Assembly (NCBI GenBank): GCA_004022145.1
Contig: RCNU01000014.1
From: Paecilomyces variotii
Lineage: Eukaryota
Strand: one strand, 5' to 3'
Length of the DNA: 64,000 nucleotides
Shown here: positions 1-31,100 of the stretch, piece after piece
How the letters are laid out: each line of letters starts with the position of its first letter
Position numbering within the stretch: the stretch's first letter is position 1
The notes under the pieces: generated by a model
Database searches by the model: none
Seen by the model: the letters and a program-made list of their open reading frames with translations, nothing else
What the model was told of the DNA's origin: nothing
Made by a program: the position numbers and the translations under genes

Positions 1-1245
1 GGGGTTGAAGACCTGGGGCCTCAGCAGATAACTAGTGCTTGGGTACAAGAAGCTGCTGGCTTGACGCCGCAGCAGGTGTAGAAAATATTCGCTAATAAAA
101 TTAGTTAAATGCTATTATATATAATTGAGAAAACATACCTCGAATTGAGTCCGCTGAACGTTTCCCTGAATGGAAGACTTGCTGTATATAGATTGCAAGA
201 GCGGCCAGGGTAAAAGACTGTGCGTTTGTGGCTGCATCTTCTGGGGAGACTCGGCCCAATGTAAACACCACGCCTCTAGGTTTTCACTAACAGTATCGGT
301 TCTGGCATGCTTTATCCATTTGACGAGCCCTGTCCGCTGGTCCCACGCAACCACAGATCTTTATCAGCATATAACCGGGGCCTCGTGTCTGACCAGCCTG
401 CCTCGAGCACAATGAGTGGGATTTGCCTGCCAATAGGCATAATTTCCAGATCGGGCTCCTTGGTAGAGCCAGCATAAACGCCAGTAGAGTTAGTAAGTCC
501 TGATATGAAATGTTAGCTAAGAGTATACTACAGATAATCCATGACATAACTCACTGTCTCCCACAGCAGTGACAAGTGTTGCACTTTCTTTGGCCGTAAG
601 AAGTACCTGGACATAAGCCGCGTAGAGGCATAAATTGATCCATACCTGTGGGGTATTATGTATAGAGATTGGCATTCATTAGGACAAATGATAAGTGGCG
701 CGAGGGAGAATAATAACCATATCTTAGAGATCGTTTCTCGAACAGGCGGTCGATTTCATTGGAAACTTCAGACGTAGTGTCTGCGGTGATGTCTTCAAAT
801 TGCACTATTATCTAGTAACAGAATCAGGCGATTCAAAATTGTATGTGTCTCAGTGGGATATCTTTCGCGCATTATAAACTAATAGTGAAGTTGTATTAAG
901 CTGCACGAAGATAATATAGGAGTCTCCAGGATTGCAGAAGTAGTGTAATACTTTTATGCGGTATATGGTCTTCGAGGCAGCGTATGCAAAAGGTTAATGA
1001 CCGAACACTGAATATAATCAGTGGCATCGTTGGTTAAGAGAAATGACTAATTCAATGTCGAATAAGTATAATAGATCTTGATGAAACTGGGGATTATAAC
1101 TGATAGTCTTGATGCAGTTCAATAATAGGAAAAATCCAAATAAGTGTGGTTTCATGGGTAGGCAGCACAATACCACTAAGGATGACTTAATCAACGACAG
1201 CAGCTCTTGTAGTTATTTCAAGTCAGATCCATAGGGACTCTGAAT

Positions 1246-1730: not shown

Positions 1731-2295
1731 TATACTACTAAATTAATGGGGCAAGCCCCTGGTCTACTAGTCAGATATAAGAGGTGGAAGAAGCTCGAAT
1801 GCCTATTCACTAGGAGCGGTAGCTGAGTACTTTTGCTAGGTAAGGTAGAACCCGGCCGTTGAGACCATTAACTAACGCAGGAACTACCCCTCCATCCGAC
1901 CTAGCATCTCAAACCTCCATAGTCACCAAATATGGGTATCGTATTAGCTCAGGGCATATGGTGCTAGAATAGGTAATCAGAATAGAGGGCGGCTAAAGAT
2001 CAAGTAAACTTTTCAAGTTGTAACTAGTTTATTCAACGGTTCCACAATCGAAGTTTCGCTCGATAGATTGCTCCATTCCGGTGTCATTCGCATCTACTGC
2101 ATTGTGACGCATCCAAGCACCAGGATATAACATGAAAAGATCTCGAATACTTGATTCGAGCCATATTGTTAATTTCAAGATCAGCTATCTAAGACCCTGG
2201 CCGGGTTAGAGGGAACTCAATGCGGGAGGTGTTGGAGATCGCGCTCCATAGGCGCAAAGAAGTCTCAAGAAAAGATAATCCAGCATCCCATCTTT

Positions 2296-3432
2296 TCACA
2301 GCATGGATTGAGTAGCGTCTCTTTGGCTTCTTCCGTATTTCTGATGACTCCTGGAGAACTCCCCGCATGCTACTGCAGCTGCACTGCTAAGATCTAGCGC
2401 GAGTGAGAAAGATGCTATCAGCCCGGCAAGGCGATGCTTGCTGCCAGGACCAGTGCAGCGAAGGAGCTCCAGAGCTTCTTTCTGTGTTGGATACGTTGTA
2501 CCACCACCGATAGTGCCAACAGGGAGGGACGGGAACAGACATGTGAGCTTCAACTCCTTCGTATCTGAATCGTACTCCACAGTCAGATGGTTCCCGGCAG
2601 CTTCTGCGACACTTGCAGCATCTTGACCGCAGGCAATGAACATAGCAGCAATGACATTGCTCATGTTCACGCAATATCCCACTTGACCGTTCCTATGCGC
2701 CCCCTCCTTGCCATTGAGGAGCACGCGGTACAAGTGGTCAGAACCGCATCCAAGGACTTTTCGGCACGCTGAATCCGAGATAGTTCCCCATGCTAGGACC
2801 TTGACACCGCGAGTTCGCATCATGTTTCCCGATGAGAGGTTCTTATCACTTCCTGTTTGGCCGACGATTGTGATATTTTGGAGATTCAGTGCCTTCGCGA
2901 GAGACGAAGCCCAGAACTTATCGCAAGCTGCCTGGGTAGCAACGGTGGCCATATTTTGGCCCGCCGCGTCGCCGCAATAATACTCAAAAATAACATGAAC
3001 AGTGGAACCCACAATATTGGGCACTGCACGTTGAAATTTCAAGTACTTGCTTGTCGACTCAGCGTCTCGTTTGAACTGGGACTGCAGGTCGGGGATCAAT
3101 TCAGCGAAACGAACCGCATCCGCGGTATTCGTGAACCAGAACACGGGGTCGCGAGACATAGCCTCATGAAGAACTTTGAACTGAACTCCTCCACAGAGGT
3201 TAAAAGTCTTACATCCGCGGGCACAACTAGCTACCAGTGTCCCTTCGGAGGTAGCCAAAGGGGCATAGAATAGCCCATCCGTATCGGCGCTTCCTCTGAC
3301 GCGGAGGGGACCGGCAATGCCAACGGGGACGCGAGTAAACCCAACACAGTTCTCAATCCTGATATTTCGAATCTCGTCATCATCAGCCCTGATGTGCTTT
3401 AGCTGTGACAGAACCTCAGCCGGGATCTTCAT
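2296..3432 (-). CDS. Soluble class I HMG-CoA reductase-like protein (378 aa, catalytic domain only, intronless)
   Basis: Motifs ENCVG, PLATSEGTLVAS, GDAAGQNM, SDK, ACGQDAA, GTIGGGT and C-terminal SHQKYGR. No N-terminal membrane/sterol-sensing domain. Confidence 0.92.
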   Translation of the reverse strand: MKIPAEVLSQLKHIRADDDEIRNIRIENCVGFTRVPVGIAGPLRVRGSADTDGLFYAPLATSEGTLVASCARGCKTFNLCGGVQFKVLHEAMSRDPVFWFTNTADAVRFAELIPDLQSQFKRDAESTSKYLKFQRAVPNIVGSTVHVIFEYYCGDAAGQNMATVATQAACDKFWASSLAKALNLQNITIVGQTGSDKNLSSGNMMRTRGVKVLAWGTISDSACRKVLGCGSDHLYRVLLNGKEGAHRNGQVGYCVNMSNVIAAMFIACGQDAASVAEAAGNHLTVEYDSDTKELKLTCLFPSLPVGTIGGGTTYPTQKEALELLRCTGPGSKHRLAGLIASFSLALDLSSAAAVACGEFSRSHQKYGRSQRDATQSML

Positions 3433-3938
3433 TGTTGGTGGGAAGTTCTTGTGAGCTGATGACGGATTTCACGAATATAGTAGAAAAACGAATATAATAA
3501 GTGCTTCATATAGGGCTATCAATACAGGATATTCTGACCTTTATATGGTTTATCTAATATGATGTATCTCATTCAGTCTGCTTCACATGTGTCCGTCTGC
3601 TCTGCTTCGGGCTTCGACGGATCACATCACGTCCACAGGTCAAAGCCCGAATGAATTTTACAGCTATTGGTTTTGGATTGGTCCAAGAGAACATCACCAG
3701 TTACAACTTTCCGAACTAATCCGGTATGAGAGTTTCAAGGGAGTGAAGATCGAAGTTTCCTGGAGCCCTCATAATCCTATGATAATGCACCGGCAGAGTG
3801 TAAGCCCCATCCTTAACCATGTTACGCCAGTTCGCCGAACTGCTCCACACATGTAGCCCGACAAGAGTAGCTAAATATTTAACCTTATCTGTTCAAGTGG
3901 GTGACTGCATTTGACTCAGGAATATCAGAACTTTCCGG

Positions 3939-4388
3939 CTAACAACCCCTGCCGGCACGCCTTAAACAGGCCCCCGGCCATATGGGAATCGAAGGCAACA
4001 GGACTGCCAATACACTCTCCAATAAAAGCGTCTTCTGCACCTCTCGATAAAAGGGCCGGAGTCCCTCCGGATAGTTCGTGGGATATAGACTGGCTATAAA
4101 GCAATGCTCGTGTGGAATGAGGGGCAAGTCTCCACTAAACTCTGCAAATGGTATAAATGCTGGGACTAATATTGCACTTACAAATTCAAGCTTCTTCCGG
4201 AGCTTGGTCTACACAACCCTGTCCTTTACCGATAGCTTACCCTTAGATTCTCCTGTAGGAATTCGAACTAGTATTGTTGCAATGTCCACGATAAAAGTCA
4301 CTAATTTTATTTGCTCATGCAAATGCCGTAAAAGCCTAGAACGGCTTATTCTCTGCTCCAAAGCATAATATAGCCTTAGCCAATGGTT
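3939..4388 (-). pseudogene. Decayed coding fragment of unknown family
   Basis: About 150 codons in one minus frame (WLRLYYALEQRISRSRLLRHLHEQ...PEGLRPFYREVQK...) with a single internal TAG at 4209-4211. No recognisable domain. Confidence 0.3.
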
Positions 4389-5030
4389 CTATCATCCTTT
4401 ATTCCTCTTTTTCAAGCAGGAGGTGCTTACTTACTTTTAATCCCTCGGTCCTAGGGAGTTCACAGGGTTCTTTAGCATTATAGAGTTCTACTCAAAACCT
4501 GCACCCGCTAAACCCAGGCAGGATGTCTAATATACTAGGGCCTGCCCGGAATAAGGTTTGGGTTGTAGATAAAGATTGTATGTGGATCACGTATCGTCTG
4601 GAATCGTCTTCTCTTTGACAGACAGCACCACTGTACGTGTCATATAAACGGTGTAAGGAGAAGAGCCTTGTCTTCCGATTGCGCAGTCACATTTGTGTTC
4701 TAATCCAGAATGGCTCCGTCTAAATTCAGCTACAACGATCGTGGATGATCTAGCAACCTCAATAGAGAACGGCAAATCTATATCCACCAGTACCGGCTTA
4801 TTGGGTTCTGCCGTGGTTTCGTAAGGCCTTGATGAGATAGGATGGTGCAATTGTAAGCAGACCTACATGAGCAATATGACTACTGGTCATAGAGCTCAGG
4901 TATTTAATGACGAGGTACGCACTAGTGGACAAATAAATCCGCCCTTGTGTATATCAAGATAACTAGATTGTCTTTTTACGTCCTCGACGTGAGTTCGTTG
5001 AAACAACGTTTATTATTATAACATTCAGCC

Positions 5031-6407
5031 ATGGCAACACTCACAGCAACTGTAGCGTCTCATGACCTTTCGCCAACTATATCGCTGACCGAAGAATCGA
5101 GTTCCAACAGTGCAGACGCCCAATTGAGTGACCTTTACGGAGACAAATTCGAATTCCCCGACTTCACCATCAAGCAGATTCGTGATGCGATCCCTCGTCA
5201 CTGTTTTGAACGTCCTGCCTTTACTTCGTTATATTACATGGCCCGCGATTGTATCGCGTTAGCTGTGGTCTTTGCTGTTTTCTATCGTTATAATACCCCT
5301 GATTTCGTGCCGTCTGCAACCGTGCGGTGCCTTTCGTGGATATTATACTCTACTATACAGGGCCTTTTGGGGACTGGGCTGTGGGTTATAGGCCATGAGT
5401 GCGGACATCAAGCTTTCTCTCGGTTCAAGGTTTTGAATGACTTCGTTGGCTTCGTCTGCCATTCATTCGTGCTTGTGCCATACTTCTCGTTCAAACTTTC
5501 CCACAGGCAACACCACAAAGTCACAGGAAATATCTCAAGAGATGTGGGGTTCGTCCCGATGACGAAAGAACAGTTCGCTTCTCATCTTCGCGTGACAGTG
5601 GACGAACTCAATGACCTGACGGAAGAGATCCCTTTCGTCACGGCTATCAACCTTCTTGGACAGCAGCTCTTTGGATGGCCGCTATATCTTCTCTGCAATG
5701 TGAGCTCTCACAATCACCATGAAAGCAAAAAGTCAGGCCGCGGAAAAGGAAAGCGCAATGGTCTCTTCGGTGGAGTCAACCATTTTAGCCCTTCCAGTCC
5801 CCTATTCGAAGCCAAAGACGCAAACGTGATCCTATTGAGCGATCTTGGCCTCTTCTTGATGGCAAGTTTTCTTGGTTATATCGGCTCCAGATTCGGCTGG
5901 TGGAATCTGTTCGTCTGGTATGGGTTACCATATATATGGGTGAATCACTGGATTGGTAAGTTATCGTGCAGCTGAATGATGATCACCACCATTAACGATA
6001 CGTTTTCAGCTGCTATTACGTTTCTTCAGCACACAGACGCTTTTGTCCCTCACTACGAACCTGAGGTGTGGAGCTTCTGCCGTGGAGCATGTTCTACTGT
6101 TGATCGTGACATGGGCTTCATTGGGCGTCATATTTTTCACAGGGGCACTGATACCCATGTGCTCCACCACTTCGTCAGCACCATCCCGTTCTATCACGCT
6201 GAAGAGGCAACGGAGGCGATTAGAAAGGTGATGGGCAGACACTACCGTAGATCTGATAATACTGGTTTGATAGGTTTCCTGAAAGATCTGTGGAAGAGCT
6301 ATCGCCTTTGTCAATGGGTCGAGCCTGTCGATGGTGCTGAGGGGGAAAATAAGGGGGTTCTCTTCTACCGCAGTCACAATTCCCCACCAGTTCCTCAACC
6401 GGAGTGA
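5031..6407 (+). CDS. FAD2/delta-12-type membrane fatty acid desaturase-family protein, divergent (about 440 aa; exons 5031-5955 and 6010-6407)
   Basis: His boxes HECGH, HRQHH and HVLHH; PDFTIKQIRDAIP N-terminal motif. The GTAAGT...CAG intron (5956-6009) joins NHWI-AAITFLQHTD in frame. Confidence 0.93.
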
Positions 6408-6497
6408 CGTTTTGATATTCCTGCCAGACGGGACAAGAATGATCATTATGGATTCCTGTCTCTGGCAATCATTTCTATCTGCTGGAATGTTCTAACT

Positions 6498-6677
6498 TGT
6501 AATAATGTTCGGGGACCTCCCTAAGTACCCTTAGGAATCCTGGAGAGCACGCTCCGGATATGGCATAGGTCAACCCACCGCGGGGTTTTTAGATAGCTAG
6601 GTAAAACAGCTACATAGGTGCTAAACTTGTCATTCATTCAGCATTGCAGCTTCGAGATAATGTGCTATCCCGTCACA
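6498..6677 (-). mobile_element. Possible second solo-LTR-like remnant (180 bp)
   Basis: TGTAATA...CGTCACA ends differ from a perfect inverted repeat only by transitions. It abuts a decayed minus-strand frame (6678-6910). No TSD. Confidence 0.25.
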
Positions 6678-7894
6678 TGTGAATCGATATGCTTTTTGAT
6701 AATATCACCGTCTGTCCTATAAGAAGGTAGTATCTGACGTCTCTCCGAACCATACTAAACAATGCTGCAGCTGGTGTACGTAGGTAAGATTTCCCCATGC
6801 ACATCAGCTGGGAGTGTATAACTATCTGCGAGAAATGCCGGTGCGCCAATGCTAAGCTTATGGAAAGGGTCCATGTGGCGGCCAATACCCATGAAGAAGC
6901 TATTCTCTAGGTAAGTAGTTCGCTGCTCCGTATTCTCAGTAGCGTCGATCGCTGGAAATTAGGCTTTTGATATTTGAAATATAACTAAGGCGGGCAGTGA
7001 GTTAGCGAATAATGTCCTATTTCATACCATCATGATGTTTCCATTGCTCACAAAAGTACTAATATAGAACAGAGAAGATCTAAAAGATCCGCCAATCGGA
7101 GCGTTATCATCATCCTTGTTCGCAGGAATTATCCCGAAATGGCAAGCTATCCGCCGTTACATTGATCTAAAGATTTTAGTAGCAATATAACTTATGATAT
7201 GTGAGGTCTGTGAACCTCGACCGCGTGCTTAATGGCGTAAACTCTTCTCTTCCTGCTAGATTTCCGCAGATCCCGTTCATGACGGTCGATGCTAGTCGAG
7301 AACTTTATCAAGACGAGCGATGTATACTCTTGATGGCGGGCTGAGCCTTGGCTATGCCTTTGACAAACGGCCGAATAGAATAACCGGTCTGCTCTATTTC
7401 AGTCAGCGACGTAATCATACTCTACTCTATACATACGTGTGTGGGTGTGAGTGGGCCATTTGGTATGAATATAGCTGACGCTTGGTTCTTTTTTGCTCAC
7501 TTCGAGCCCTCCTTCGGCCCATCTATAACCACCGCATTCGGTCGTAATTGATAGTACATTGTGACATATCAGATACAGAGCGATGATGAGGAACACCGTG
7601 GAATAGAGGTTACTTTCTGCTGTGAAGTCATCAGTCGGGAACCCAGCCGTGAGCAGTCGTAGTATACTACATGGTTATCGCCGTACGGTACTCCCTCTTG
7701 TCAGACACACCGTCTTGGAACTCTCAATTCCCTTCCGGCTGCAAATTCCCACCTGCACTCGAAGCAGCCAAAACATGGATTTCTTTGAAAGTTGCGGCTT
7801 TGGTGGGCTGCTCATACCACTCTTCGACACGCAGATAAGTCTCCTCTGCTCACTTTCATTTTCCATCATATCCTCCGGACCAATAGTTATAGAA

Positions 7895-9708
7895 ATGCTC
7901 TTCGGGTCTCAGCCCGACGGAGACATTTCTCTCTTTCATTCAGAAACCAGTACCCTTCTTCTTAGTAAGTCGTCAAAAAACAGACAGGACGAGATCTCGC
8001 TAGTGAAACTATGTCGAGATTCCATTCCCTCGAAATGCTCCCCTAATAAACTTCTCTTCAACGGCCATCTGCAAACAATCTGGACGGTTCTGAAATCCAG
8101 CCATGTTCCCGTATACTACAAGCGGAAAATATTCGAGTCGAACAACAGTCTCTATCCAGGTCAATTTGCAGTGGACTTCGTGGTTCCTCCCTACGATTCA
8201 TCATCAGATGATCCTGAAGTCATCGACGCTGCGAGGAAATACACCCTCCCTGATGGATTACCATCTCTGACGGGGCTTTTTACGCATAACGAGGCTCAAG
8301 GATTATCATCACAGGACTCCAAGCCGATGCTGGTCGTTCTGCATGGTCTTTGTGGAGGCTCTCATGAGGAATATCTCAGACATGTATTGGCTGCATTGAC
8401 AGCCGATGGTAGCTGGGAAGCATGTGTACTCAATGCTCGAGGCTGCTCTCAAACAAAGATTACTACCGGTGTACTCTACCATGCTGCGGCAACGTGGGAT
8501 TTACGACAGACCGTCGAATGGCTACGTGAAACGTTTCCAAATCGTCCTCTATTTGGTATCGGATTTTCACTCGGTGCAAACATCCTTGCTACGGTATGTC
8601 CTCTCGACAATGAACCAACTACGTACGTACGCTAACTCCCTCCCCTCTCCCCTGTAAAGTACTTAGGACAAGAACAAGAGGCCTCTCAACTTAAGGCAGC
8701 GGTATTCTGCGCAAATCCATGGAATATCGAAATCTGTTCTGTCAATCTACAAAATTCAAGAATCGGTCTTGGAATATACAGTAAAGCAATAGGTACAAGT
8801 ACAAGACGGCTTTTTGAACAGTACGTACTTATATTTCGACCCTCTTTCCAGTCTCATCATGAACTAAACAAAAACTGTCTTGTTAGACATTACTCAATCC
8901 TTTCCAAGAATCCACACATAGATATTGATGCAGCACGAACGATCGTCTACCAGCATGACTTTGACCGGTGCGTCGTGCATCCCCCCCTAAACCCCTCAAA
9001 CTGACGTTGAAAGATGTACACTGCTTACTGAACGGGTTTTAGAATCATACAATGCCCAACCTGGGGCTATCCAACAGAAAGAGCTTATTATCGAGACGCA
9101 TCTTGCGTTGATGCTATGCTAGCTATCAAAATCCCCTTCTTTGCATTAAACGCAGAGGATGATCCAGTTAAGTCTAACTTAGTCCATCACCCCCAAAATT
9201 CACAACCATCGGTAGGTAACTACTTATCGCACAAGACTAACAGACAGACATCAAATAGATCGCTACTCGTCACGCAATCCCATATCAGGAATTCAGAAAA
9301 ACGCCCTACGGAGTCCTGGTCACTACACCGTGGGGTGGACATCTTGGTTGGTTTGAACGTAATGGCGAGAGATGGTTCGTTAAACCTGTAAGTTACCTAG
9401 TTACCTACCTAAAGTATCTAAGGTTTTTGGAAAAATCATTCTCGCATAAGCGTTCGTCTGCCGATTGATGACTAGCTGACAGATAAATCGATGACTAGGT
9501 GTGTAATTTTCTTAATAAGATGGCGAGTGAAATCGATCTTGAGTCGCCGTTGGTTATACGAAAGTCCGGGCGGGAATCTGGCAAATCGCTTGCTTTGGTT
9601 GGGAAGAAGAAGAAGAAGAACTTGCACGTGGGACCCAAGCAGGGGGTTTTTGATCCTATGAGGCGAAAATTACTGCCGCCAGGTTCTGAACTTAAGGATG
9701 CAAGTTAG
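7895..9708 (+). CDS. EHT1/EEB1 (ABHD1/3, YheT)-family alpha/beta hydrolase: acyl-CoA:alcohol acyltransferase/esterase; 6 exons
   Basis: FNGHLQT, HGLCGGSHEEY, NARGC, nucleophile GFSLG, acid NAEDDP and His GGHLGWF. Manual splicing over five GT-AG introns (first donor at 8594) gives an uninterrupted frame to TAG at 9706-9708. Confidence 0.9.
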
Positions 9709-11000: not shown

Positions 11001-11803
11001 TCAGTAGCGGCCGTTGCCGTAGGCCGAGGTTCCGTAGCCGAACTTGCCACCGTTCTCAACTTCACCAGGAGTGGGGTGTCCAGGGAGAACATCGGCACCA
11101 TCAGCGACAGCGGGGGCGGCCTTGTTGCGGCGCCAGAAGGGACGACGAGTACCAGCAGTGTAGCCGTTAGCCGGGGAGGGACCGAAGCGCTTCTCACGCT
11201 TGTGGTGGCGAGCCAGACCGATCTGGAAAAGGATGCCAATCGTGAAGAGGAAGCTATTTGTCCCAAGTTAACAGCAGCTCACAGACGGGAAGCAGAAGGG
11301 AAGCCAACTTACATTCCAATGATGGAGACGGCGAAAACAGCCTTCTCGAGACGGCATGCCGTGGACAGCTTGGGGAAGTAGGTCGTCTCCTTTCCAGTAC
11401 CAATACCGAAGCCGCCCGCTCCGTAGCCTTCAGCCTTGGCGTTGGCCTGGCCAGTTCCCAACGGGGTGTGAACTGTTCCAGTGCATTTCTGGGTACCGTC
11501 GCGGGTGAGGACGGCGATGGCGATCATCACTCCGACAAAGGCAACATCCAGAACCACTGCCACACCAGCAAAGAAGGCAATTCCACCCAGGCAGCAGGTG
11601 AAGATAGAGCCCAGCAGCGCGTATAAGCAGGCTGCTCCCGACATACCTTCAACGGCTCTCATCCAGGTAGCGATGGTCATTTTATGGTCGGCCAGGACCG
11701 CCAAGAAGTAGGAGTAGATTCCCAGAATGACAGCCGCGGCACATAGTTGCAGGACCCGAATGAACAGGTTCAGAAAGCGTAGAATCACGCCGCCAGCACC
11801 CAT
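11001..11803 (-). CDS. MARVEL-like four-TM membrane protein; 2 exons
   Basis: MGAGGVILRFLNLFIRVLQL... with four hydrophobic segments. An intron after VSIIG continues into IFLFTIGILFQ...KRFGPSPANGY..., ending at TGA 11001-11003. Confidence 0.8.
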
Positions 11804-13854
11804 TTTGGCGGTTGTTGATGTTGTGATACTGCCACGTAGAACGACCAGGGATGACAGCACCGGTCGAAGAGGTCGAGATTCGAGATAAATTCAGGTACAA
11901 GCCCTATCAGGGGGATAAGGCCGGAAGTCGCGGATGTTGAGTAGTGGTAGAGATTGCGGTGAACCGGCAACAACAACGGTTTTAAAAAGAAAATCAGGCA
12001 CCCGGCAAAGGGAGAACCTGGAGTTTATACGGGTTGACGCTGGACCTGGAAAAAAGACTGCCTGGGCGGTGGACCGAGTGGGGAACAGTGGGGATGGCCG
12101 CCATGTTGATCGGCGGAGGTGGAGCAGTGTTTCTCTGTCTTGATTGGCTACTGAGCAGACAATGGGCACCTGATGGGGGGCGATTAACGGGTCTATATTC
12201 TGCTTATGTCCCATTCAGGACTAGCCCTGCAACCGAAGAGATGACCCTGCACATGATTGCGGGTCTCCGTGACGTCAAAGCGGCCGATAGAAGGTTTCCA
12301 GTAGCCAGAAAATCACCAAAACAGCAGGTCCTGTGGGCGCATCCCGCGCAAATCCTCAATTCTATTGGTGATACGCAGTCCATCGCTGCCCAAAAGGGAA
12401 TTGTTCCTTGTTAGTCATCCCAACCGGGCAAAAGTGAGTGGCTCCGTCGACTGCCGAACCACGGAACATTCTCGGTACTGCCACACTCGTGCCGCCAAAG
12501 CCACAACACAAACACGACTCAGCCACCTTCCCAGCCTCTGCCATGAAAAGAAAAGAACTTCCTTGACGCCAGAGGAGACAGGATACTACGATATGATAAG
12601 GTGCTCTTGTTAGCAGAAGAACTCTATTCATATCCTCAAGGTTCGACTGCTTTGTGAAGCCATGACATCTTTGAGTAGCCTAAATAAATCAGGTTCGGTG
12701 ACACAGACTCCCGCGCAAAGATTCAACAGTATATTCTCATCGTCCAACGCCTTAGATGATGACCTCATCGTTTCACAGACTGGAAGTCCTGGTTACGGTC
12801 GAGAAAGCCATTGCTGATAATATACATATCTCAAGTGCCACAGAGCGCTAAATCCATGTATAAGCCCTGAATCATACTTACAGAACTCATCGACGGTTGA
12901 CTAGCAAAGGCACGTACCTCGCCATAATGTGATGATGTTATATATAACTTCAACAAAATGCATATTCGAGATTCGTATTAGTAAGTCATTATGTCCGAAG
13001 TTGTATGGTTATATAGATGATACTATTTTGCATCCATACTCGAATAGAAAATCCATCTAATGGGCTCTCTCCTTCCTAGAGAAGACTCGTCAGATATATA
13101 CATTGATATAACCATCGTCGTCTTCGAGAGTCGGTCAACTAGCTGTCAAGGAGCGTCATCAGCAAGTAGCTGTTTGTATATTGTGTCGTCGCTTTTAATT
13201 TTTCTAACTTGAGGTGATTAGCTGCATGTTGAAAGTTTCCATGTCTGAGGCTACCGCAGAATACGTGTCCAGGAGTCCTGGGTGGCAATTAAGCATTGCG
13301 GGGAAAGAGGGTCCTCTGTGGGTCATGCAGCCGCGCAACACGAGCAGAATCAACTTTCTTAGGATTGTAGAGCTGGCGGAAAGAAACTACTCGAGTCTAT
13401 TCGACTGTTGTTGGGTATAAAATGGATTCAGGCTTGCCGTACGTCGGGTCTGGAGGTGAGATAATATCAGTTGGTCTTAGGGTAATACAGAAAATGGTGA
13501 GCTCTAACATTACAGAATCAGGAGACACATGGAAAAGAATTGCTAAGTAGTCTGTATTATTATGCTCGCTTAGCTGCCTTTGCCTTTACGCTCAAGGGAT
13601 ATCACAAACCAGAGCCAGAGGCAATAAACTGTTCACAATAGTAAAGCCAGTGGCCAAGTATAAAAACGAGCAGCCCTGTTATTGCGGTAGCCAGCATATT
13701 GTTCGATTGCAAGGGAACCAATATCTGCACACGCAGTCTGCACCTTCGGCCTGCCACTGGTATCGTAATGCTTTCCATTGTCCGCAGTTATAGAATTGCA
13801 ACAAGGTTAAACCTTCCAAGACCCCGGCCGAGTGACCCTATAAGGAGAGAATCT

Positions 13855-15258
13855 TCAACCTTGGACGTCTACCAAGATCTTGCAATGACCATCTCGATCT
13901 TTGATCAGTGCTTGGAATGCCTTCTCGTCGACTTCGTCTAGCTTGACCTTCCCTGTGATCATCTTTTCTGGTTTCAATTGCCCTGTGTGAGAGTTCCTGG
14001 TCAATCACTGATCTAGTTGAATACAGAGCTCTTCTGAAGGCTCACTCACCATGACACAAGGCTTGGATGACGTTTGTGAAGGCGCTCTCATCATATAGAG
14101 CAGCTCCAGTATATTTAATCTCTTTATACATCAGGTCATTCACATTGATATGGGGCCGTTTCTCCCACACGGCGACATTGACAATAGTTCCGTGAGTGCG
14201 GCATGCAAGGATGGCCGAGTTCAGTGCGCCTTCCACACCAGCGGCATCGAAGACAACATCTGCTCCAATGCCGTCTGTCAACTCTCTCACTTTCTGCGGG
14301 ATATCGACCTCCTTCGGGTCAAGAACATGCGTTGCACCAAACTCCCGCGAGAAGACCTTGCGGTTCTCCGTCACCTCGGCCACGATGATGTGTTTGGCGC
14401 CTTGCAGCTTGAGAACTTGCACAATGCCTATACCGATAGGGCCACCTCCGATGATAAACACGGAGTCGCCCATCTTGAACGGCGACAGATTGACTGCGTG
14501 CCATGCCACTGCCAGCGGCTCGATCAAGGCGGCAGTTTCCAGAGAGATGTCGTCGGGTAATGCATAGAAATGACCTCCCGGAGCGACTATGTGCTCCGAC
14601 ATGCCACCGCCAAAACCTAGGAACTTCTCAGCGGATTGTCCCTCGTACGGATTATCAACGCATCCTAAACTCACCACTCAGCCCGATAAACCCAATGTTC
14701 TCACAGCAGTACTGATATCCTTGTTTGCAGGATGCGCATGTCCCGTCGAAGATGGTAGGTCTCACAACTGCTTTCTGCCCGGGGGAGACATGCGTCACGC
14801 CTTCGCCTACTTCCTCGACAATGCCACCAAATTCATGGCCGATTGAGACCGGCAGACTCGTACCAGTGATGCCGTGCGGCTTGCCGGGGATTAATACGGG
14901 ACCCCCGCTGTATTCGTGGAGATCTGTCGCCGTATAAGCAATTGTTTGGCCTGTCGACTAAGTAAGTGGTATGAACTCACCGCTACCGCAGACTCCAACA
15001 AAAGCTGGTCTCAACTGTTTGGGCACGAACTCAGTCAGCACGGCACGACCAGGATTAGTACACTGCCGGATATACCTTCACTTGGCCTTTTCCACACGTA
15101 GGCTCCTCAATTGTATCCACGCGGACGTCACCACGGCCATGGAAACGGACGGATCTCATTGTCGGTGATGACTTGAGTTTCGTAAGGAACGACTCCCCCT
15201 TGGTCATCGGTAGCCGAACGCTGGTCTGCTCCGCAGTAACGGATCCTGAAGGGGTCAT
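13855..15258 (-). CDS. Zinc-dependent medium-chain dehydrogenase, (2R,3R)-butanediol dehydrogenase-like (alternative start at 15159); multi-exon
   Basis: MRSVRFHGRGDVR, spliced GVCGSDLHEY, GHEFGG, LIEPLAVAWHA, GGGPIG NAD-binding motif and C-terminal HCKILVDV. Confidence 0.88.
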
Positions 15259-15984
15259 GTTGGAAAAAGCTCTAGCATTGGATTTTGCTTGCTAAGACGA
15301 ATAGACAATATATCCATTGCTACACATATGGGAATCCGAAACTTAGCATCCATCGCTTTTATATGCTTCAGATAACAGCTGCCGTGGCGACCCATGGAGT
15401 GCCATGGCCAAAATGATGGTGAAAAGCGAGCAAGTAGAATGTTACTTTGTTAGCCAGGCAAGACAGCTTGCCCCGGCCACGCAAGCCCGGTCATCGCTTC
15501 TCGAACGAATAGAACGTACGGCATCTTGTCACGAGAACAGCTTCAGGGTGTTTCACTGACGCTAGCCTGATGCCATAAGGGAGTTTCCAGCCTTGGATCT
15601 AACCCATGCTAGTCCCTGCAACGTTATCGGAAAAGATAGCCCTTGTTCGCAGACTCAACTTTCCCCACAAAACGCGATGTAGATCATGGCGTCACTGGTG
15701 TCATCAACCTCGACATCAGTGGACGTTGAGGCCTTGTACAACCAGTGGAAAAGAAGAAACGAGCTCAGTCAGACTGGAGAAATCTACCGGCGTGAGAGTA
15801 TGCTCGTCGAGCACTGGGCGTTGGAAGCATGGGGTAGATCCGCAAGTGCCCCGGAATAACCAAAGCCAGTAATAATACTCTGTCAGGATCCGAGCACGCG
15901 GCGAACATGATAGCATAGCCATCGTGCGTATTGTCGGATTCTGTGTACAGAGTACCATTTACTGCCAAGCCGGAAATACGATGC

Positions 15985-22312: not shown

Positions 22313-24144
22313 CTACATCCGGGCCCTGAAGGGCTCAGGCTTGATCTGCATAATTCTTCCAAAGTATAGTTCCAATTCTGCAATGGCAGCTGGTGCCAAG
22401 CTAACCATGGTCCCAATCCACCCATCAGGTCTCAAAACAATAATTGCTCCCGAACCAAGATCAACTCTGTACCGCGCATGGGCTGTATGCTGGCTATCAA
22501 AGAAGACTTTCCCCAGAGGCTCCGTTCCCAGCATTTCATAGGGAGATGGCCCTTTTCCTGCAATTATTGTCCTCCATGACACTGGTAATCTTGGATCTGA
22601 AAGATAATGTGACTTTCTAACGGCATCAAAAACTGTGCAAGCAGTTGGGGATGTGTAGACTGTGTCCGCCACAAATACGACAACATGGAAAAGGGCAGTA
22701 TTTGGTGTCTCCCGGTGTAAGCGTGTTGCTTCAAATGTTCCTGGCTTTTGCAGTTCCACATCCGGTCCAGGCTCACCAGGAGCAGGTACTCTGTTGTCCC
22801 GTAAAGCTTGCTTGAGAGAGCCCTGCACATTGAGGAGATCATCAGACTCATAACAGATCGAAAGGCCGCTGGTGAATGCGGCAGCTTCGGCCATCACTTG
22901 ACCCAGTATAACATTCGGGTCGGCATTAGGGTCCCCTGTCCATCCAATGGGCAGTTGCATCGTCATTAACCTTGAAATATCTTTGTCATAGTTGATCAGT
23001 TTCTGCACGTTTGGTCGTCGTTCGCTCTGGTATGTCTTCAACACTTCGGGCCTGAGTTTGCCCTGAAGGACGAGTGAGAGCTTCCATCCTAGATTCACCG
23101 CATCATGGATTCCAGTATTCATGCCTTGGGCTGCGCCCGAGCTATGCGTATGACAGGCGTCACCGGCCAGAAACACGCAGTCCTTGACACAGAATTTCTG
23201 CGCGACACGTTGGCCTACAGAATAGATCGTATACCAATGGACTTCCTTGAAGGACAATGAGAACGGTTTAACCGATGCAATGGCTTCTTTAACGGCAGCT
23301 CCTTCGTCAAAGTTGGGGTATGCTTTTTGCCGTTCAGCAGTAAGGGCAAACCCGATTCGAGTAGCTCCACGGTCCAGTGCAGCCCATAGAACGTTGCCGT
23401 GCGTGGGCGACTCGATGGCGCAGTAAGTCCTGGGTTTGGGAAGATTTGTTTCAATAATACCATCAATTCTCACCCACTTGTCCTCTGTCGTACTTCCTTC
23501 GAAAGGAATCTGAAGAGCCCGTCTCACGAAAGACCGTCCGCCATCCGCGCCCACAAGATATCTGCATTTAACAGCAGACTGCGCGCCGGTCAACTCGTCC
23601 TGGATCGTTGCGGTGACTCTATAACCTCCCACCTGGACTGTGTCGTCTACAGTAACGTCGATTAGCTTCATTGGGGCTTCCAAGTTAACACCGTGCTTTT
23701 CCAGCGCTTGTCTAAAGACCTCCTCCTGATACTTCTGGCGCAATACCAGGGCGAAATCCCACACAGTGTCTCTCATATTTTCCATAAACGCCCAGCCTCT
23801 GCCCTGGACCTCATTCCCATTTCGGTCATAAGATACAGTATCTCGACAAGCGAAGCACTGCTGCGAGAGCGCCTCGGCAAGACCCAATTGATCGAGCATC
23901 TCAGACGTTCGGGGGAATAAAGTGATCGCGCGGCCGTATTGATCCTGCGACGATTTCGGATGTTGCTCAATTATTCTGATCCGCTTGTCATGTGGGAGAC
24001 TCAACGCAAGCTGATATGCCGTGACGAGGCCTGGGTTTTGTAAGAAATGCTGGTCTTCAAAGTTCTACTCGCCGAATTCGTACCTACTGGGCCTCCTCCT
24101 ACGATGAGAACATCGAGGTGTTCTGTCTTGTCGGTATTTGCCAT
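22313..24144 (-). CDS. FAD-dependent monooxygenase, phenol-hydroxylase (PheA/TfdB)-like; 2 exons
   Basis: Exon 1 MANTDKTEHLDVLIVGGGPVG; VGADGGRSFVR; FLAGDACHTHSSGAAQGMNTGIHDAVNLGWKL; thioredoxin-like C-terminus with VLRPDGWIG. Confidence 0.92.
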
Positions 24145-28190: not shown

Positions 28191-31100
28191 TCATGAGGTA
28201 ATAATATTTCCTGCGGCTCGCTCCTCCTCCACTTGAGAGTCATACATCTGGATTAGGGCCTCTTTATCCCTGATTCGAGATTGTTCGAGGAACGCCCGGA
28301 ATGATGGATATACGAAACATAGGTCACCCGAACAACGTAGTCGGAGCTTGACCTTGAACGGCTTTGCAGAGTGACCGAGCTTCATGGTTACACCAAAAGA
28401 GTTATGAGTTCCATCGTTTTCAATAATGTCCATGGTCATGGAGAAATACAAACTAGGTTTGAATTGAAGCATTAACCTTAGCACTCGACGGGATAAGCAG
28501 ATGCTATTCGCTGGCCGACGCAATCTGTGTTGAAGATAGATCGATGCGAGGAAATTGTGCCATAGGCTCATTTGTTCAAGGCCGTGGCTGCCGTCGCGGT
28601 CAAGTGCTTCGAAATAGAAGTGCTGAATAGATGGTCCTGCATCATTGGGGGATAGAGCGCCGCGCGCCAGTAGCGCTTCTAGAACAGACATCCCTTTAAC
28701 TCTTGTAGAAGATTTGCCACTGAAGTCGCAGAACAGATCACAATATGCTAAGATGATGGCCCTTGCAGGTGTGGCGGTTGCGTCCTGGTCCTGGGAGATC
28801 TTCCATACCGGATATTCATGATATCCTAGGTAGGTCAAGATGTAGATGGGTGCAAGCAATAGCACACGGATCATCGTCTTGGAAGGGTCCTCGCCTCGAC
28901 ACAAGGGGGTGGTACAACATATTTCACTCCGCATCTCTGAATGTCTGTACATGTACATTGTGAGAGGGTCTCCACTGTCAATCAAATTCCACGGTAAAGG
29001 ACCGTAGATATCATGGAGGAGGGACAGAAATGAATAGGGGGCCTGATCGAGCTCATGCTCCGCTCTCATACGAAGGAGCCCGGTAGAAAGCGAATACCCA
29101 CGTTCCCACCACCCATGTTCCACCGTCCAGTTCATGGGCGCTTCCCCGAGCCGCAAGTCAGCAAGCAATATCTGGGAAAATGCATCCGGCGCATTGAAAG
29201 AACGTAGGTATTGCGCCATGCAGGTCTCTTTGTTCGGATCTTGTAGGAACTCGTCCACAGACCGGTGGCAAAAGTCGACTCTGTTTCTGGCATCCGGCTC
29301 CAAAAGTCCCTTAAATCCGTTCAATCGCCTCACCCCGTGCTCTTCCCTCTCCTCTTGTGTAATGTACTGGACGTTCTCTTGAGGGTAGTCCTCAGCCATG
29401 GCAAATTCGGGATTTCGTTCATAATCTTCGAGAAGAGAATAGCGCAGCAATGTCAACGATATGTCGTAGGTCTTCGCGAGACGAAGAATAGCGCAGGTGT
29501 GGTAGAATTTGCGTCGCACCGTCTTGCTGAGAGAGTTAAGAATATACTCATAGAGCCCGCTCAGCTCATCAGGAAGCGAATTAAGTTCATCCTCCAACTC
29601 AGCAATGCTGGCACCGTCCTCCCATTGCTCGCGAATGGACCTAATCACCAGCGCCACCCATAAGAAAATACCCTGCGCTTTTTCTACGACTCCACTGACG
29701 AGCCTTTCTCTGGCCTCCACATCGGCAAGATGAGCCAGTCTATCTTCGCTGAAAGCTCTCATATCCTGCCATGTCAACTGATGGAGCCGTAGCCTCCTCT
29801 CGGAGGCAAAAGTATTCATGAAGATACTGTGCTCACGGCTGGAAACACAAAGCTTGACGTACCCGGATGAGACTTCGGACCACTCGCACAGTTGTTTAAC
29901 AAGATCCCTGTGGTCATACTGAGTTGTCTCCTCGAACTCGTCGAGACCATCGATAAGAAAGCAAAATGAACGCTGTTTGTTCACCGGCCCCAGCTCAATG
30001 AGCCGGTTGAATGCTTCGAAGATCTCAGAGTCGGATATTTCGTTCGCTGACTGCACCTGCCATGGCGTTGCAGCCGCCTTAGTCCAGGCCTTATATAGCA
30101 TGTGCTGTATTAGCTCAGGACAAGCTTGCAAGACACCATGAAGAAGGGCGCGACAAAGACCGGCGAGAGATTTCTGGAGGACTGTTCCTGGCTTCCAGAA
30201 GAAAAAATGTGCGAAGACAAGAGTCCGGTCGCCTAGTGGGACAGTGAACAGAGGCAACATACACTTGGGACCACGGCAACGTACCTGCCCACTTTTGTAA
30301 CTCTGTTCTCATATTAGGGTGAGAGGACAAGAACTTCATGAGCGTTGACTTCCCAGACCCCAGCTTGCCTGATATGTGAAAGATACCTTCTCCTGACGAT
30401 AGCCATGTATTGAGCCTCTCTCTTGCAAGGCGTTTATCCGCATCAAGGGAAACATTGTCATGGTCATCGAATAACCATTGGAATGTCTTCGAATGCGCTT
30501 CAGGCACCGTTTCATACCTTCCTTGTATCCCATCGAGTTCCAGACTAGCCAAAACGCGCTCTTGGGTTATTCTTGTCAAGACATCCTGTGGGACGCGAAG
30601 AAGTGCACTGAGCTGAGCCTGGGCCGCTGCGCCGAACGAGTTGACAGACAGTCCCTGCATCCCCGTAACATCATCTTGGAGTTTCTTAAGACGAGCAATC
30701 TCCTCTTCAGAGGAATCCACCAAGCTTGCAAGCCTCTCTCTGATATCTTGGCTACGACAGTTAGCTCCAATCAGAATAATCGCAATCTGCCACAGCTTAC
30801 CTCGCCAAATAAGAAAGCTGTAACTCAAGCTGGCTGCGGCAGATTTGCAACCTTTGTTCGAGGTCTTGCTTGTCTTTTTGGTACCACTTATTCCTCACAG
30901 AAGACTTCACGCTGTGGAACTTCGATTTAGGATCTTTGGCTTTTAGTTTGTCGAGCAGCGAGATAAGATCGCGAGATATCTTCTGACATTCCGTCGCCAG
31001 GTCAAATATACATTTGTCTGCTCCGGTTAAATGTGCGTTGTTGGAGACAAGCAGTCTAGAGGCTAAGCTTTCAGTCTCTCGCGCGATGACCCCACGCTGC

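Follow-up and report, generated by a model that had tools for sequence, protein, structure and literature searches.

Three intact genes for lipid-acting enzymes, here called A, B and C, lie within positions 2296-9708 of a 64,000-nucleotide stretch of Paecilomyces variotii DNA (the window, to which all positions refer). A encodes a soluble reductase with the class-I fold of 3-hydroxy-3-methylglutaryl-CoA (HMG-CoA) reductase (HMGR), B a divergent membrane desaturase of the FAD2 type, and C an alpha/beta hydrolase-acyltransferase of the EHT1 type. The locus suggests a way, so far undescribed, of making modified fatty alcohols or esters; that it forms a metabolite cluster, as a preliminary description of the same DNA labelled it, we infer.

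Gene structure and transcription

Gene A (2296-3432, minus strand) is a single-exon coding sequence, stop codon included, for a protein of 378 amino acids (aa). Its transcript spans about 1782-3480, an RNA contig at 2000-3480 continuing leftwards in RNA run X1. Gene B (5031-6407, plus strand) consists of exons 5031-5955 and 6010-6407 (stop included), separated by an intron at 5956-6009, and encodes a FAD2-type membrane desaturase paralogue of 440 aa; RNA contigs place its transcript at 4984-7205. Gene C (7775-9708, plus strand) has exons 7775-8593, 8660-8820, 8887-8967, 9043-9166, 9259-9387 and 9499-9708 (stop included), and encodes a 507-aa paralogue of the EHT1/EEB1/ABHD1-3-type alpha/beta hydrolase-acyltransferases; its RNA contigs extend from 7717 or 7763 to past 10000. 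A and B are divergently transcribed, as had been stated in the preliminary description, from start codons 1.6 kb apart. The spacer between these start codons (3433-5030), which contains the 5' ends of both transcripts at about 3480 and 4984, is presumably a bidirectional promoter. P. variotii proteins in the databases match A at 99%, B at 98% (exon-level) and C at 98%; by such matches of 97-99% the window belongs to P. variotii or a very close strain.

The gene models were confirmed by two RNA runs, X1 and X2, which are labelled as the same organism and come from two studies. All six predicted introns (one in B, five in C) were skipped exactly at their GT..AG borders in contigs of both runs, and A, B and C were each covered by separate contigs, which shows transcription of every one of them in the same samples. 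Together with the open reading frames (ORFs) and Pfam matches, this bears out the earlier claim of three intact lipid-enzyme genes. Word depth in X1 was 1035 for A, 321 for B and 861 for C, compared with about 7 or none between the genes, and in X2 about 10, 9 and 17, figures that cannot rank the genes or measure or correlate their co-expression. Contigs 95-99% similar to positions 2000-6500 were also found in two food-fermentation metatranscriptomes (X4 and X6). Since they are unspliced and span intergenic DNA, they are unusable as evidence of expression, and they suggest DNA of a related strain in the libraries rather than transcripts. Runs X17-X22 contained hardly any words of the locus and carry no information on it.

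What lies between the genes is ordinary intergenic DNA and untranslated region (UTR), not demonstrably decayed. Its GC content is 44-48% (0.44 in the A/B spacer), and a large share of it is UTR (the A transcript extends to about 1782 and the B transcript to 7205). Of 13 ORFs scanned, the ten from spacers or flanks gave nothing at a Pfam E-value of 0.1 or below beyond three sub-threshold matches, and those of the A/B spacer were without a Pfam match. Direct repeats were absent from the spacers, including the A/B spacer, and no convincing transposon relics, repeats or traces of repeat-induced point mutation (RIP) were seen there; RIP indices were unremarkable save in one 511-base piece. The earlier view that the genes are separated only by decayed DNA is not upheld by these results.

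The reductase encoded by gene A

The product of A matches the Pfam family HMG-CoA_red (PF00368) with E = 8e-85. Its best solved relative is the archaeal class-I HMGR 6hr7 (2e-61; human HMGR, 9e-45), its nearest clusters in the ESM Atlas are bacterial HMGR-family proteins (a lead only), and it is publicly annotated as HMG-CoA reductase. It has no membrane or sterol-sensing part. Residues are given in human numbering, counted along the structure-match alignment and anchored on the catalytic residues named in PMC11948995. The catalytic tetrad Glu559, Lys691, Asp767 and His866 is kept in A as E63, K197, D271 and H363, and Arg590 and Asn755 are kept too. Replacements were found at Ser684 (Val190), Lys692 (Asn) and Leu862 (Phe359), and the stretch around Lys735 is one residue shorter. 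The pattern of a canonical class-I HMGR, namely Ser684, Lys735 and Leu862 in a mevalonate-pathway context, was not found in A.

A belongs to a fungal family that we compared in 121 sequences, namely A as the query and 120 matches listed from a homologue search that took proteins of 207-662 aa; the counts and distributions given for this family hold among these matches. Glu559, Lys691, Asp767, Arg590 and Asn755 are each present in 121/121 sequences and His866 in 115/121. At the Ser684 site, Glu (107/121), Asp (10/121) or Val (4/121) occurs and never Ser, with Val found only in the window protein, its 99% twin, and the relatives from Xylogone and Scytalidium. The Leu862 column is Phe in 118/121 sequences, and no Lys stands in the aligned Lys735 column, though a conserved Lys or Arg lies two residues downstream in the fungal family. 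Members of about 380 aa occur widely, in Aspergillus, Penicillium, Dothideomycetes, Fusarium and Colletotrichum, and a single species often has several of them. Their C-termini read x-[KR]-[LI] in 97/121 and SKL in 44/121 sequences; the window protein ends in SML, that of Xylogone in SKL and that of Scytalidium in TKL. An SKL-type C-terminal tripeptide is the classical peroxisomal signal, and the 97/121 x-[KR]-[LI] ends suggest that the whole family of short HMGR-like proteins is peroxisomal. Our literature searches found no mention of peroxisomal-type C-termini in this family and, as far as they showed, no description of a peroxisomal fungal HMGR-like enzyme.

A precedent for another activity of this fold is FcrA, a class-I HMGR homologue that reduces C14-C18 acyl-CoA to alcohol and leaves HMG-CoA unreduced (Grossi et al. 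2025, PMC11948995). It has been shown biochemically in bacteria and archaea, occurs in Halobacteriales and many bacteria, and is not inhibited by simvastatin (PMC11948995). Its marks are Glu in place of Ser684 (in the FcrA of N. pharaonis), a bulky residue in place of Leu862, and a small residue in place of the Lys that forms a salt bridge with HMG (PMC11948995); this Lys is printed there as Lys795 and was read here as Lys735.

For a bacterial comparison, 21 proteobacterial homologues were drawn from 20 of 401 genomes, which represent one phylum; a scan of genomic contigs with fungus-specific patterns yielded one bacterial locus only. The FcrA marks were present in 15/21 homologues, hereafter FcrA-signature sequences (our own label, based on the published residues), and canonical marks in the other 6 (L043-L048), as well as in a eukaryotic sequence with a sterol-sensing domain upstream (L023). 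The 15 FcrA-signature sequences share with the fungal family a one-residue deletion at the Lys735 site and the motifs GDAxGQNM and RAPxF, and carry Phe or Trp at the Leu862 site, compared with Leu in the canonical sequences. An IQ-TREE phylogeny over 366 columns of 43 sequences (21 of the 121 fungal, 15 FcrA-signature and 6 canonical bacterial, and 1 canonical eukaryotic sequence) recovered the fungal family as monophyletic (100%) and the window protein, Xylogone and Scytalidium as one group (100%), and set the fungal family and the FcrA-signature bacteria apart from the canonical sequences with 79% ultrafast bootstrap support. HMG-CoA synthase was detected in 0/5 FcrA-signature genomes versus 5/5 canonical-signature genomes, where it adjoins the reductase in at least 4 of 5. 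Wax ester synthase/diacylglycerol acyltransferase (WS/DGAT) was found in 1/5 and 0/5 of these genomes, respectively. By its residues and phylogenetic position, A looks like an FcrA-like, bacterial-type fatty acyl-CoA reductase rather than an HMG-CoA reductase. In the literature we found no description of the function of this family in fungi, of a fungal FcrA, or of short fungal HMGRs in gene clusters, and PMC11948995 touches on eukaryotic FcrA-clade members in passing only.

The desaturase encoded by gene B

B contains the Pfam domains FA_desaturase and DUF3474 and the histidine boxes HECGH (at 122), HRQHH (158) and HVLHH (358), and thus belongs to the FAD2/delta-12 membrane desaturase family. 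It is identical to the P. variotii database protein P0122 at 427/440 residues. In a tree of 69 full-length sequences, built without an omega-3 outgroup to fix its root, 62 housekeeping delta-12 desaturases follow fungal taxonomy, P. variotii P0219 among them. B, P0122 and the relatives from P. lecythidis, Xylogone and Scytalidium (g7426) form a separate long-branch clade outside this set, with a support of 1.0. Identity to B is 81% for P. lecythidis, 65% for Xylogone, 62% for Scytalidium g7426 and 60% for the housekeeping P0219.

Twenty-two positions that are at least 95% conserved in the 62 housekeeping sequences are altered in all five members of the B clade. Changes beside the histidine boxes include A121G, which immediately precedes HECGH, W154F and G159R at box 2, and G353R, I354G and E356D before box 3, so that the motif SWKISHGKHH becomes SFKLSHRQHH and HGIIETHVLHHY becomes HRGTDTHVLHHF. 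The residue before HECGH is Ala in 114, Gly in 5 and Ser in 1 of the 120 matches listed, the five with Gly being four clade members and P0239. The latter is a 308-aa fragment with the marks of the B clade (Gly before HECGH, and SFKFSHSQHH), which indicates at least one further carrier of this clade. The claim that the FAD2 of this locus is divergent is confirmed by the separate clade, the altered positions and the Gly before HECGH.

In plants, Gly before box 1 is reported for all known acetylenases and, hydroxylases excepted, for functionally divergent FAD2s (PMC3554562). Three residues after the His-His of box 2, the Thr of other members is replaced by Ile or Asn in hydroxylases (PMC6771796). 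B reads HHKVTGN and keeps Thr at this hydroxylase-determining site (Thr165). The Gly mark, the altered surroundings of the boxes and Thr165 together lead us to predict that B catalyses a dehydrogenation other than ordinary delta-12 desaturation. Two other assignments were considered and rejected: a FAD2-type hydroxylase (FAH12), on account of the retained Thr165, and a housekeeping odeA-type oleate delta-12 desaturase, given the separate clade, the 22 changed positions and the presence of P0219 in the species. The source of the P. lecythidis relative of B (P0123), a full-length FAD2, labels it 'medium-chain fatty acid ethyl ester synthase/esterase 2'; this name may be an annotation slip from a neighbouring EHT1-type gene, and is a hint only.

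The hydrolase encoded by gene C

C matches Pfam Abhydrolase_1 (5.8e-10) and Hydrolase_4, and its motifs GFSLG (GxSxG), DDP and GGHLG assign it to the EHT1/EEB1/ABHD1-3 family; we take GFSLG, DDP and GGH to hold the Ser-Asp-His triad. Splicing is identical to that of the NCBI model P0243, with 457/467 residues identical. The public protein of 467 aa starts at the second Met (7895), and RNA contigs start at 7717 and 7763, with the first AUG at 7775. The 40-aa hydrophobic N-terminus missing from P0243 is conserved in P0242. Because the mRNA starts upstream of the ATG at 7775, no earlier ATG is present and this N-terminus is conserved, the longer product of 507 aa is likely.

In the tree, C falls within the housekeeping EHT1-type group of the Eurotiales as a long-branch duplicate, one that is Paecilomyces-specific and fast-evolving. 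The housekeeping EHT1-type copy of P. variotii is P0288, at 62% to C. Of the separate housekeeping copies that the preliminary description had wanted confirmed elsewhere in this genome, two are present in the species, the delta-12 desaturase P0219 (60%) and P0288. Relatives around C are labelled alcohol O-acetyltransferase or AB-hydrolase YheT by their sources. EHT1-type enzymes prefer medium chains. The homologue search for C used a 273-aa exon query and covered proteins of 150-478 aa, a range outside which orthologues of about 507 aa from Scytalidium, Xylogone and P. lecythidis would fall.

Linkage of genes A and B

Among the matches listed, the nearest relatives of A and B outside Paecilomyces come from Scytalidium lignicola, where their locus tags follow one another (B7463_g7427 and g7426), and the longest contig given for both is 104,425 bases. 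In Xylogone, the longest contig is 8,055,043 bases for both relatives, which is weak evidence of linkage since a piece of this length is chromosome-sized. These locus tags and longest-contig figures constitute the synteny evidence. The adjacency spans Eurotiomycetes and Leotiomycetes at protein identities of 76% (A) and 62-65% (B), and the topologies of the A and B trees are congruent. Among the matches listed, Val at the Ser684 site is confined to A proteins with a B partner. Were genes placed at random, the two closest relatives would seldom end up side by side in a second class of fungi; either selection or joint transfer keeps A and B together. Neighbourhood in other genomes, on which the preliminary description had let its cluster depend, was therefore found for A and B, and did not extend to C outside Paecilomyces among the proteins of 150-478 aa searched. 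Our literature searches found no account of an A-B gene pair.

Other members of the A family have mixed neighbours, which include P450, FSH1 hydrolase, elongation factor EF3, rhamnosidase and major facilitator superfamily (MFS) genes. On a metagenome contig (L004:277-6144), a family member at 56% identity to A is followed, 1.3 kb downstream, by a gene for a P450 with a fused flavodoxin/FAD reductase, the architecture of fungal fatty-acid subterminal hydroxylases.

Other features of the window

No polyketide synthase (PKS), non-ribosomal peptide synthetase (NRPS) or terpene cyclase was found among 20 large ORFs chosen from the 47 of at least 150 aa at 9-64 kb, in agreement with the earlier remark that no PKS or NRPS is visible. 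Neither these 20 ORFs nor 13 small ORFs of the flanks and spacers contained a backbone enzyme or a cluster regulator or transporter, and within the window the locus does not have the make-up of a classical fungal secondary-metabolite cluster. A gene for a MARVEL-domain membrane protein (11309-11890, minus strand) lies between C and a zinc-type alcohol dehydrogenase gene (14042-15291, minus strand; ADH_zinc_N, E = 1.4e-29), which lies 4.3 kb downstream of C. The remaining window is mainly occupied by housekeeping genes (RSE1, MOR2/PAG1, NADPH-P450 reductase, phosphoadenosine phosphosulfate (PAPS) reductase, SPB4 and SNF2). Surrounded by these, further right, are a phenol-hydroxylase-type FAD monooxygenase gene at 22313-24064 (minus strand) and an NLR-like gene with NPHP3_N and DUF7791 at 28191-30894 (minus strand). 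At 100-811 (minus strand), several short frames, e.g. IPLIVLEAGWSDTRPRLYADKDLWL, resemble exons of a single gene that may extend past the left end of the window; Pfam gave no credible match for these frames.

Interpretation

The best reading of the locus, to which we assign a probability of roughly 45%, is a route in which a desaturase and an acyl-CoA reductase together lead to a modified fatty alcohol and C acts in release or esterification. Just as tentatively, we regard it as a small accessory lipid-modification locus with the A-B pair as its conserved core. The gene structures, the transcription of A, B and C, the neighbourhood of A and B in another class of fungi, the residue signatures and the tree positions are observations; in the following scheme, the substrates, order of steps, compartment, role of C and product are what we infer. 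B would probably introduce an extra or unusual dehydrogenation into a phospholipid-bound C18 chain, which could produce a triple bond, conjugated unsaturation or a further, newly positioned double bond, a hydroxyl group being unlikely. The modified chain would be freed and activated with CoA, perhaps after peroxisomal shortening. A, as an enzyme of the FcrA type, would then reduce the acyl-CoA thioester to a primary alcohol in a four-electron, NADPH-dependent reaction through the HMGR tetrad. This reaction would probably take place inside peroxisomes or close to them, and its substrate may be a chain already shortened by beta-oxidation. For C there are two candidate roles, release of the modified acyl chain from lipid or formation of an ester from the alcohol and an acyl-CoA; it would have joined the pair in Paecilomyces as a fast-evolving duplicate of the housekeeping EHT1-type enzyme. 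A desaturase, reductase and acyltransferase route had also been proposed in the preliminary description. Its acyl-CoA reductase with an HMGR fold has gained the precedent of FcrA, most of the FcrA residue signature and the tree, and its A and B genes form a conserved pair. In favour of the EHT1-type enzyme's part, only its adjacent position and its transcripts in the RNA runs shared with A and B were found.

Several observations weigh against this reading. FAD2 enzymes act on membrane lipids, and a lipase, an acyl-CoA ligase and peroxisomal import would therefore be needed; no acyl-CoA ligase is present in the locus. Literature searches for acetylenic or fatty-alcohol products gave no matching metabolite of P. 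variotii. The application of the plant Gly rule to a fungal protein is a cross-kingdom analogy. The FcrA enzymes shown biochemically are bacterial and archaeal; the key node of the A tree has 79% support only, in a tree taken without a characterised FcrA sequence. A Lys/Arg-Glu pair (Lys242 in 95/121 and Arg in 13/121 of the matches listed, followed by Glu243) stands two residues downstream of the Lys735 column in the fungal family, and could bind a polar group. The SML end of the window protein is a weak peroxisomal signal at best. Models gave smaller pockets to 12/59 FcrA-clade members, mainly eukaryotic ones, which may act on smaller molecules (PMC11948995). As for the unity of the locus, words common to the upstream regions of A/B and C were not above shuffles, contig depth cannot establish co-expression, and C was not seen with A and B outside Paecilomyces among C candidates of 150-478 aa. 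No relative of A between 76% and 99% identity was among the matches listed, although a P. lecythidis B (81%) exists; this, together with the lineage-specific C, indicates that the trio is not a fixed unit. A desaturase was found beside A-family members in 0/12 metagenome loci, a count made on stop-to-stop ORFs of at least 110 aa that intron-rich genes may escape.

Alternatively, three spare paralogues may be adjacent by chance, or A and B may form a passive block, without a common pathway and with each enzyme acting alone in bulk lipid or CoA-ester metabolism. This explanation, which we find doubtful yet worth serious weight, is favoured by the missing backbone enzyme, regulator and transporter among the ORFs scanned in the window, the Paecilomyces-specific origin of C, the P. 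lecythidis B without a listed A relative, the unrelated neighbours of other A-family members (P450, FSH1 hydrolase, EF3, rhamnosidase and MFS) and the unshared promoter words. It does not readily account for an A-B adjacency kept across Eurotiomycetes and Leotiomycetes at 76% and 62-65% identity with congruent trees, for partners that are both divergent copies and not housekeeping ones, for a Ser684-to-Val exchange limited, among the matches listed, to A proteins with a B partner, or for the finding of transcripts of A, B and C in both RNA studies. It is improbable, in our view, that A instead reduces a CoA thioester other than a plain fatty acyl one (short, branched, hydroxy or dicarboxylic, and peroxisomal), so that a small polar alcohol is made or salvaged and feeding by B and C is optional. 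The smaller modelled pockets of eukaryotic FcrA-clade members (PMC11948995), the conserved K/R242-E243 close to the HMG-carboxylate site and the peroxisomal targeting signal type 1 (PTS1) ends of the family are in line with such a substrate. So is the medium-chain preference of EHT1-type enzymes. The B-paired subclade, however, carries hydrophobic Val at the position that Glu or Asp takes in the other family members among the matches listed, the conserved partner of A is a desaturase of long-chain fatty acids, and the L004 family member adjoins a P450-reductase fusion of the fatty-acid hydroxylase type.

That A is a true soluble HMG-CoA reductase, either supplying mevalonate or serving as a resistant copy against an inhibitor of the mevalonate pathway made by B and C, is very unlikely. 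The full catalytic tetrad with Arg590 and the public annotation agree with this assignment, and statin clusters do contain additional HMGR copies that act as resistance genes (PMC10734572). Ser684 and Leu862 are nevertheless replaced and the Lys735 site is remodelled; A groups with bacteria in which HMG-CoA synthase was not detected (0/5), apart from the canonical sequences; characterised FcrA is unable to use HMG-CoA (PMC11948995); A has no membrane or sterol-sensing part; and the window ORFs scanned hold no biosynthetic core of an inhibitor type. The self-resistance alternative of the preliminary description is not supported, given the lost HMG-binding residues, the missing membrane part and the bacterial clade members without HMG-CoA synthase.

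The preferred reading, a desaturase and acyl-CoA-reductase route to a modified fatty alcohol, can be extended to a bolder proposal, which we hold to be unlikely. The family of about 380 aa, widespread in filamentous ascomycetes and mostly SKL-ended, would comprise the missing acyl-CoA-to-alcohol reductases of fungi, derived from the bacterial FcrA lineage and peroxisomal. At this locus, one member would work with a FAD2 like an acetylenase or conjugase and with an acyltransferase for medium chains. The three would start from an unusual C18 acid, which beta-oxidation shortens, and yield acetylenic or polyunsaturated alcohols and esters; no ascomycete would have been known to have such a route before.

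The annotation HMG-CoA reductase is carried by hundreds of fungal genes, and additional copies are read by genome-mining tools as resistance genes of the statin type. If the soluble family consists of FcrA-type acyl-CoA reductases, these annotations and predictions are wrong for that family, and fungi gain an unrecognised, probably peroxisomal way from CoA esters to primary alcohols. The A-B pairing offers a concrete system of two or three genes for expression and assay. Such work might bring to light alcohols or esters of a new fungal class derived from fatty acids, and a new enzyme for fatty-alcohol biotechnology.

Comparison with known systems

A resembles FcrA in its class-I HMGR fold, the catalytic Glu, Lys, Asp and His, the replaced Ser684 and Leu862, and an apparently altered site of the salt-bridge Lys (PMC11948995). 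It differs in being a eukaryotic protein of about 380 aa without an N-terminal lipid-carrier (Lad) or acyl carrier protein (ACP) domain, with Phe and not Trp at the Leu862 site, and with Val at the Ser684 site, where the remaining fungal family has Glu or Asp. The K/R-E pair near Lys735 and the peroxisomal-type C-terminus set its family apart, and its partner is a FAD2 and not a WS/DGAT. With canonical HMGRs, including the copies in statin clusters, A shares the Pfam family, catalytic residues and NADPH-type motifs. Unlike these, it lacks a membrane or sterol-sensing domain and the Ser684/Lys735/Leu862 pattern, and its clade is separate from L023 and the enzymes of bacterial mevalonate operons. 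The resistance copies of statin clusters include lvrA and mlcD.

B resembles the divergent FAD2s of plants (acetylenases, conjugases and epoxygenases) in its derivation from delta-12 desaturases, the Gly for Ala before box 1, the altered segment before box 3 and the clustering of its gene with those of other lipid enzymes. Plant gene clusters for modified fatty acids include that for falcarindiol. The acetylenase motif (D/N)VX(H/N) before box 3 is absent from B, which has RGTD, and the partner enzymes differ. CpFAH12 of Claviceps purpurea is likewise a fungal FAD2 paralogue with a chemistry changed by residues near the His boxes, but needs Ile198, where B has Thr (PMC6771796). Hydroxylation by B is therefore unlikely.

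The logic of three steps, from desaturase to reductase to acyltransferase, is that of insect pheromone and wax-ester synthesis. The insect route employs an acyl-CoA desaturase, a Rossmann-type fatty acyl reductase (FAR), and a WS/DGAT or acetyltransferase, whereas here a lipid-acting FAD2, an HMGR fold and an alpha/beta hydrolase are found; all three families differ. C belongs to the family of yeast Eht1 and Eeb1 and mammalian ABHD1 and ABHD3, with which it shares the GxSxG, DDP and GGH motifs. It differs from them as a long-branch second copy with a hydrophobic N-terminus of 40 aa and a Lys-rich tail, the housekeeping orthologue in P. variotii being P0288.

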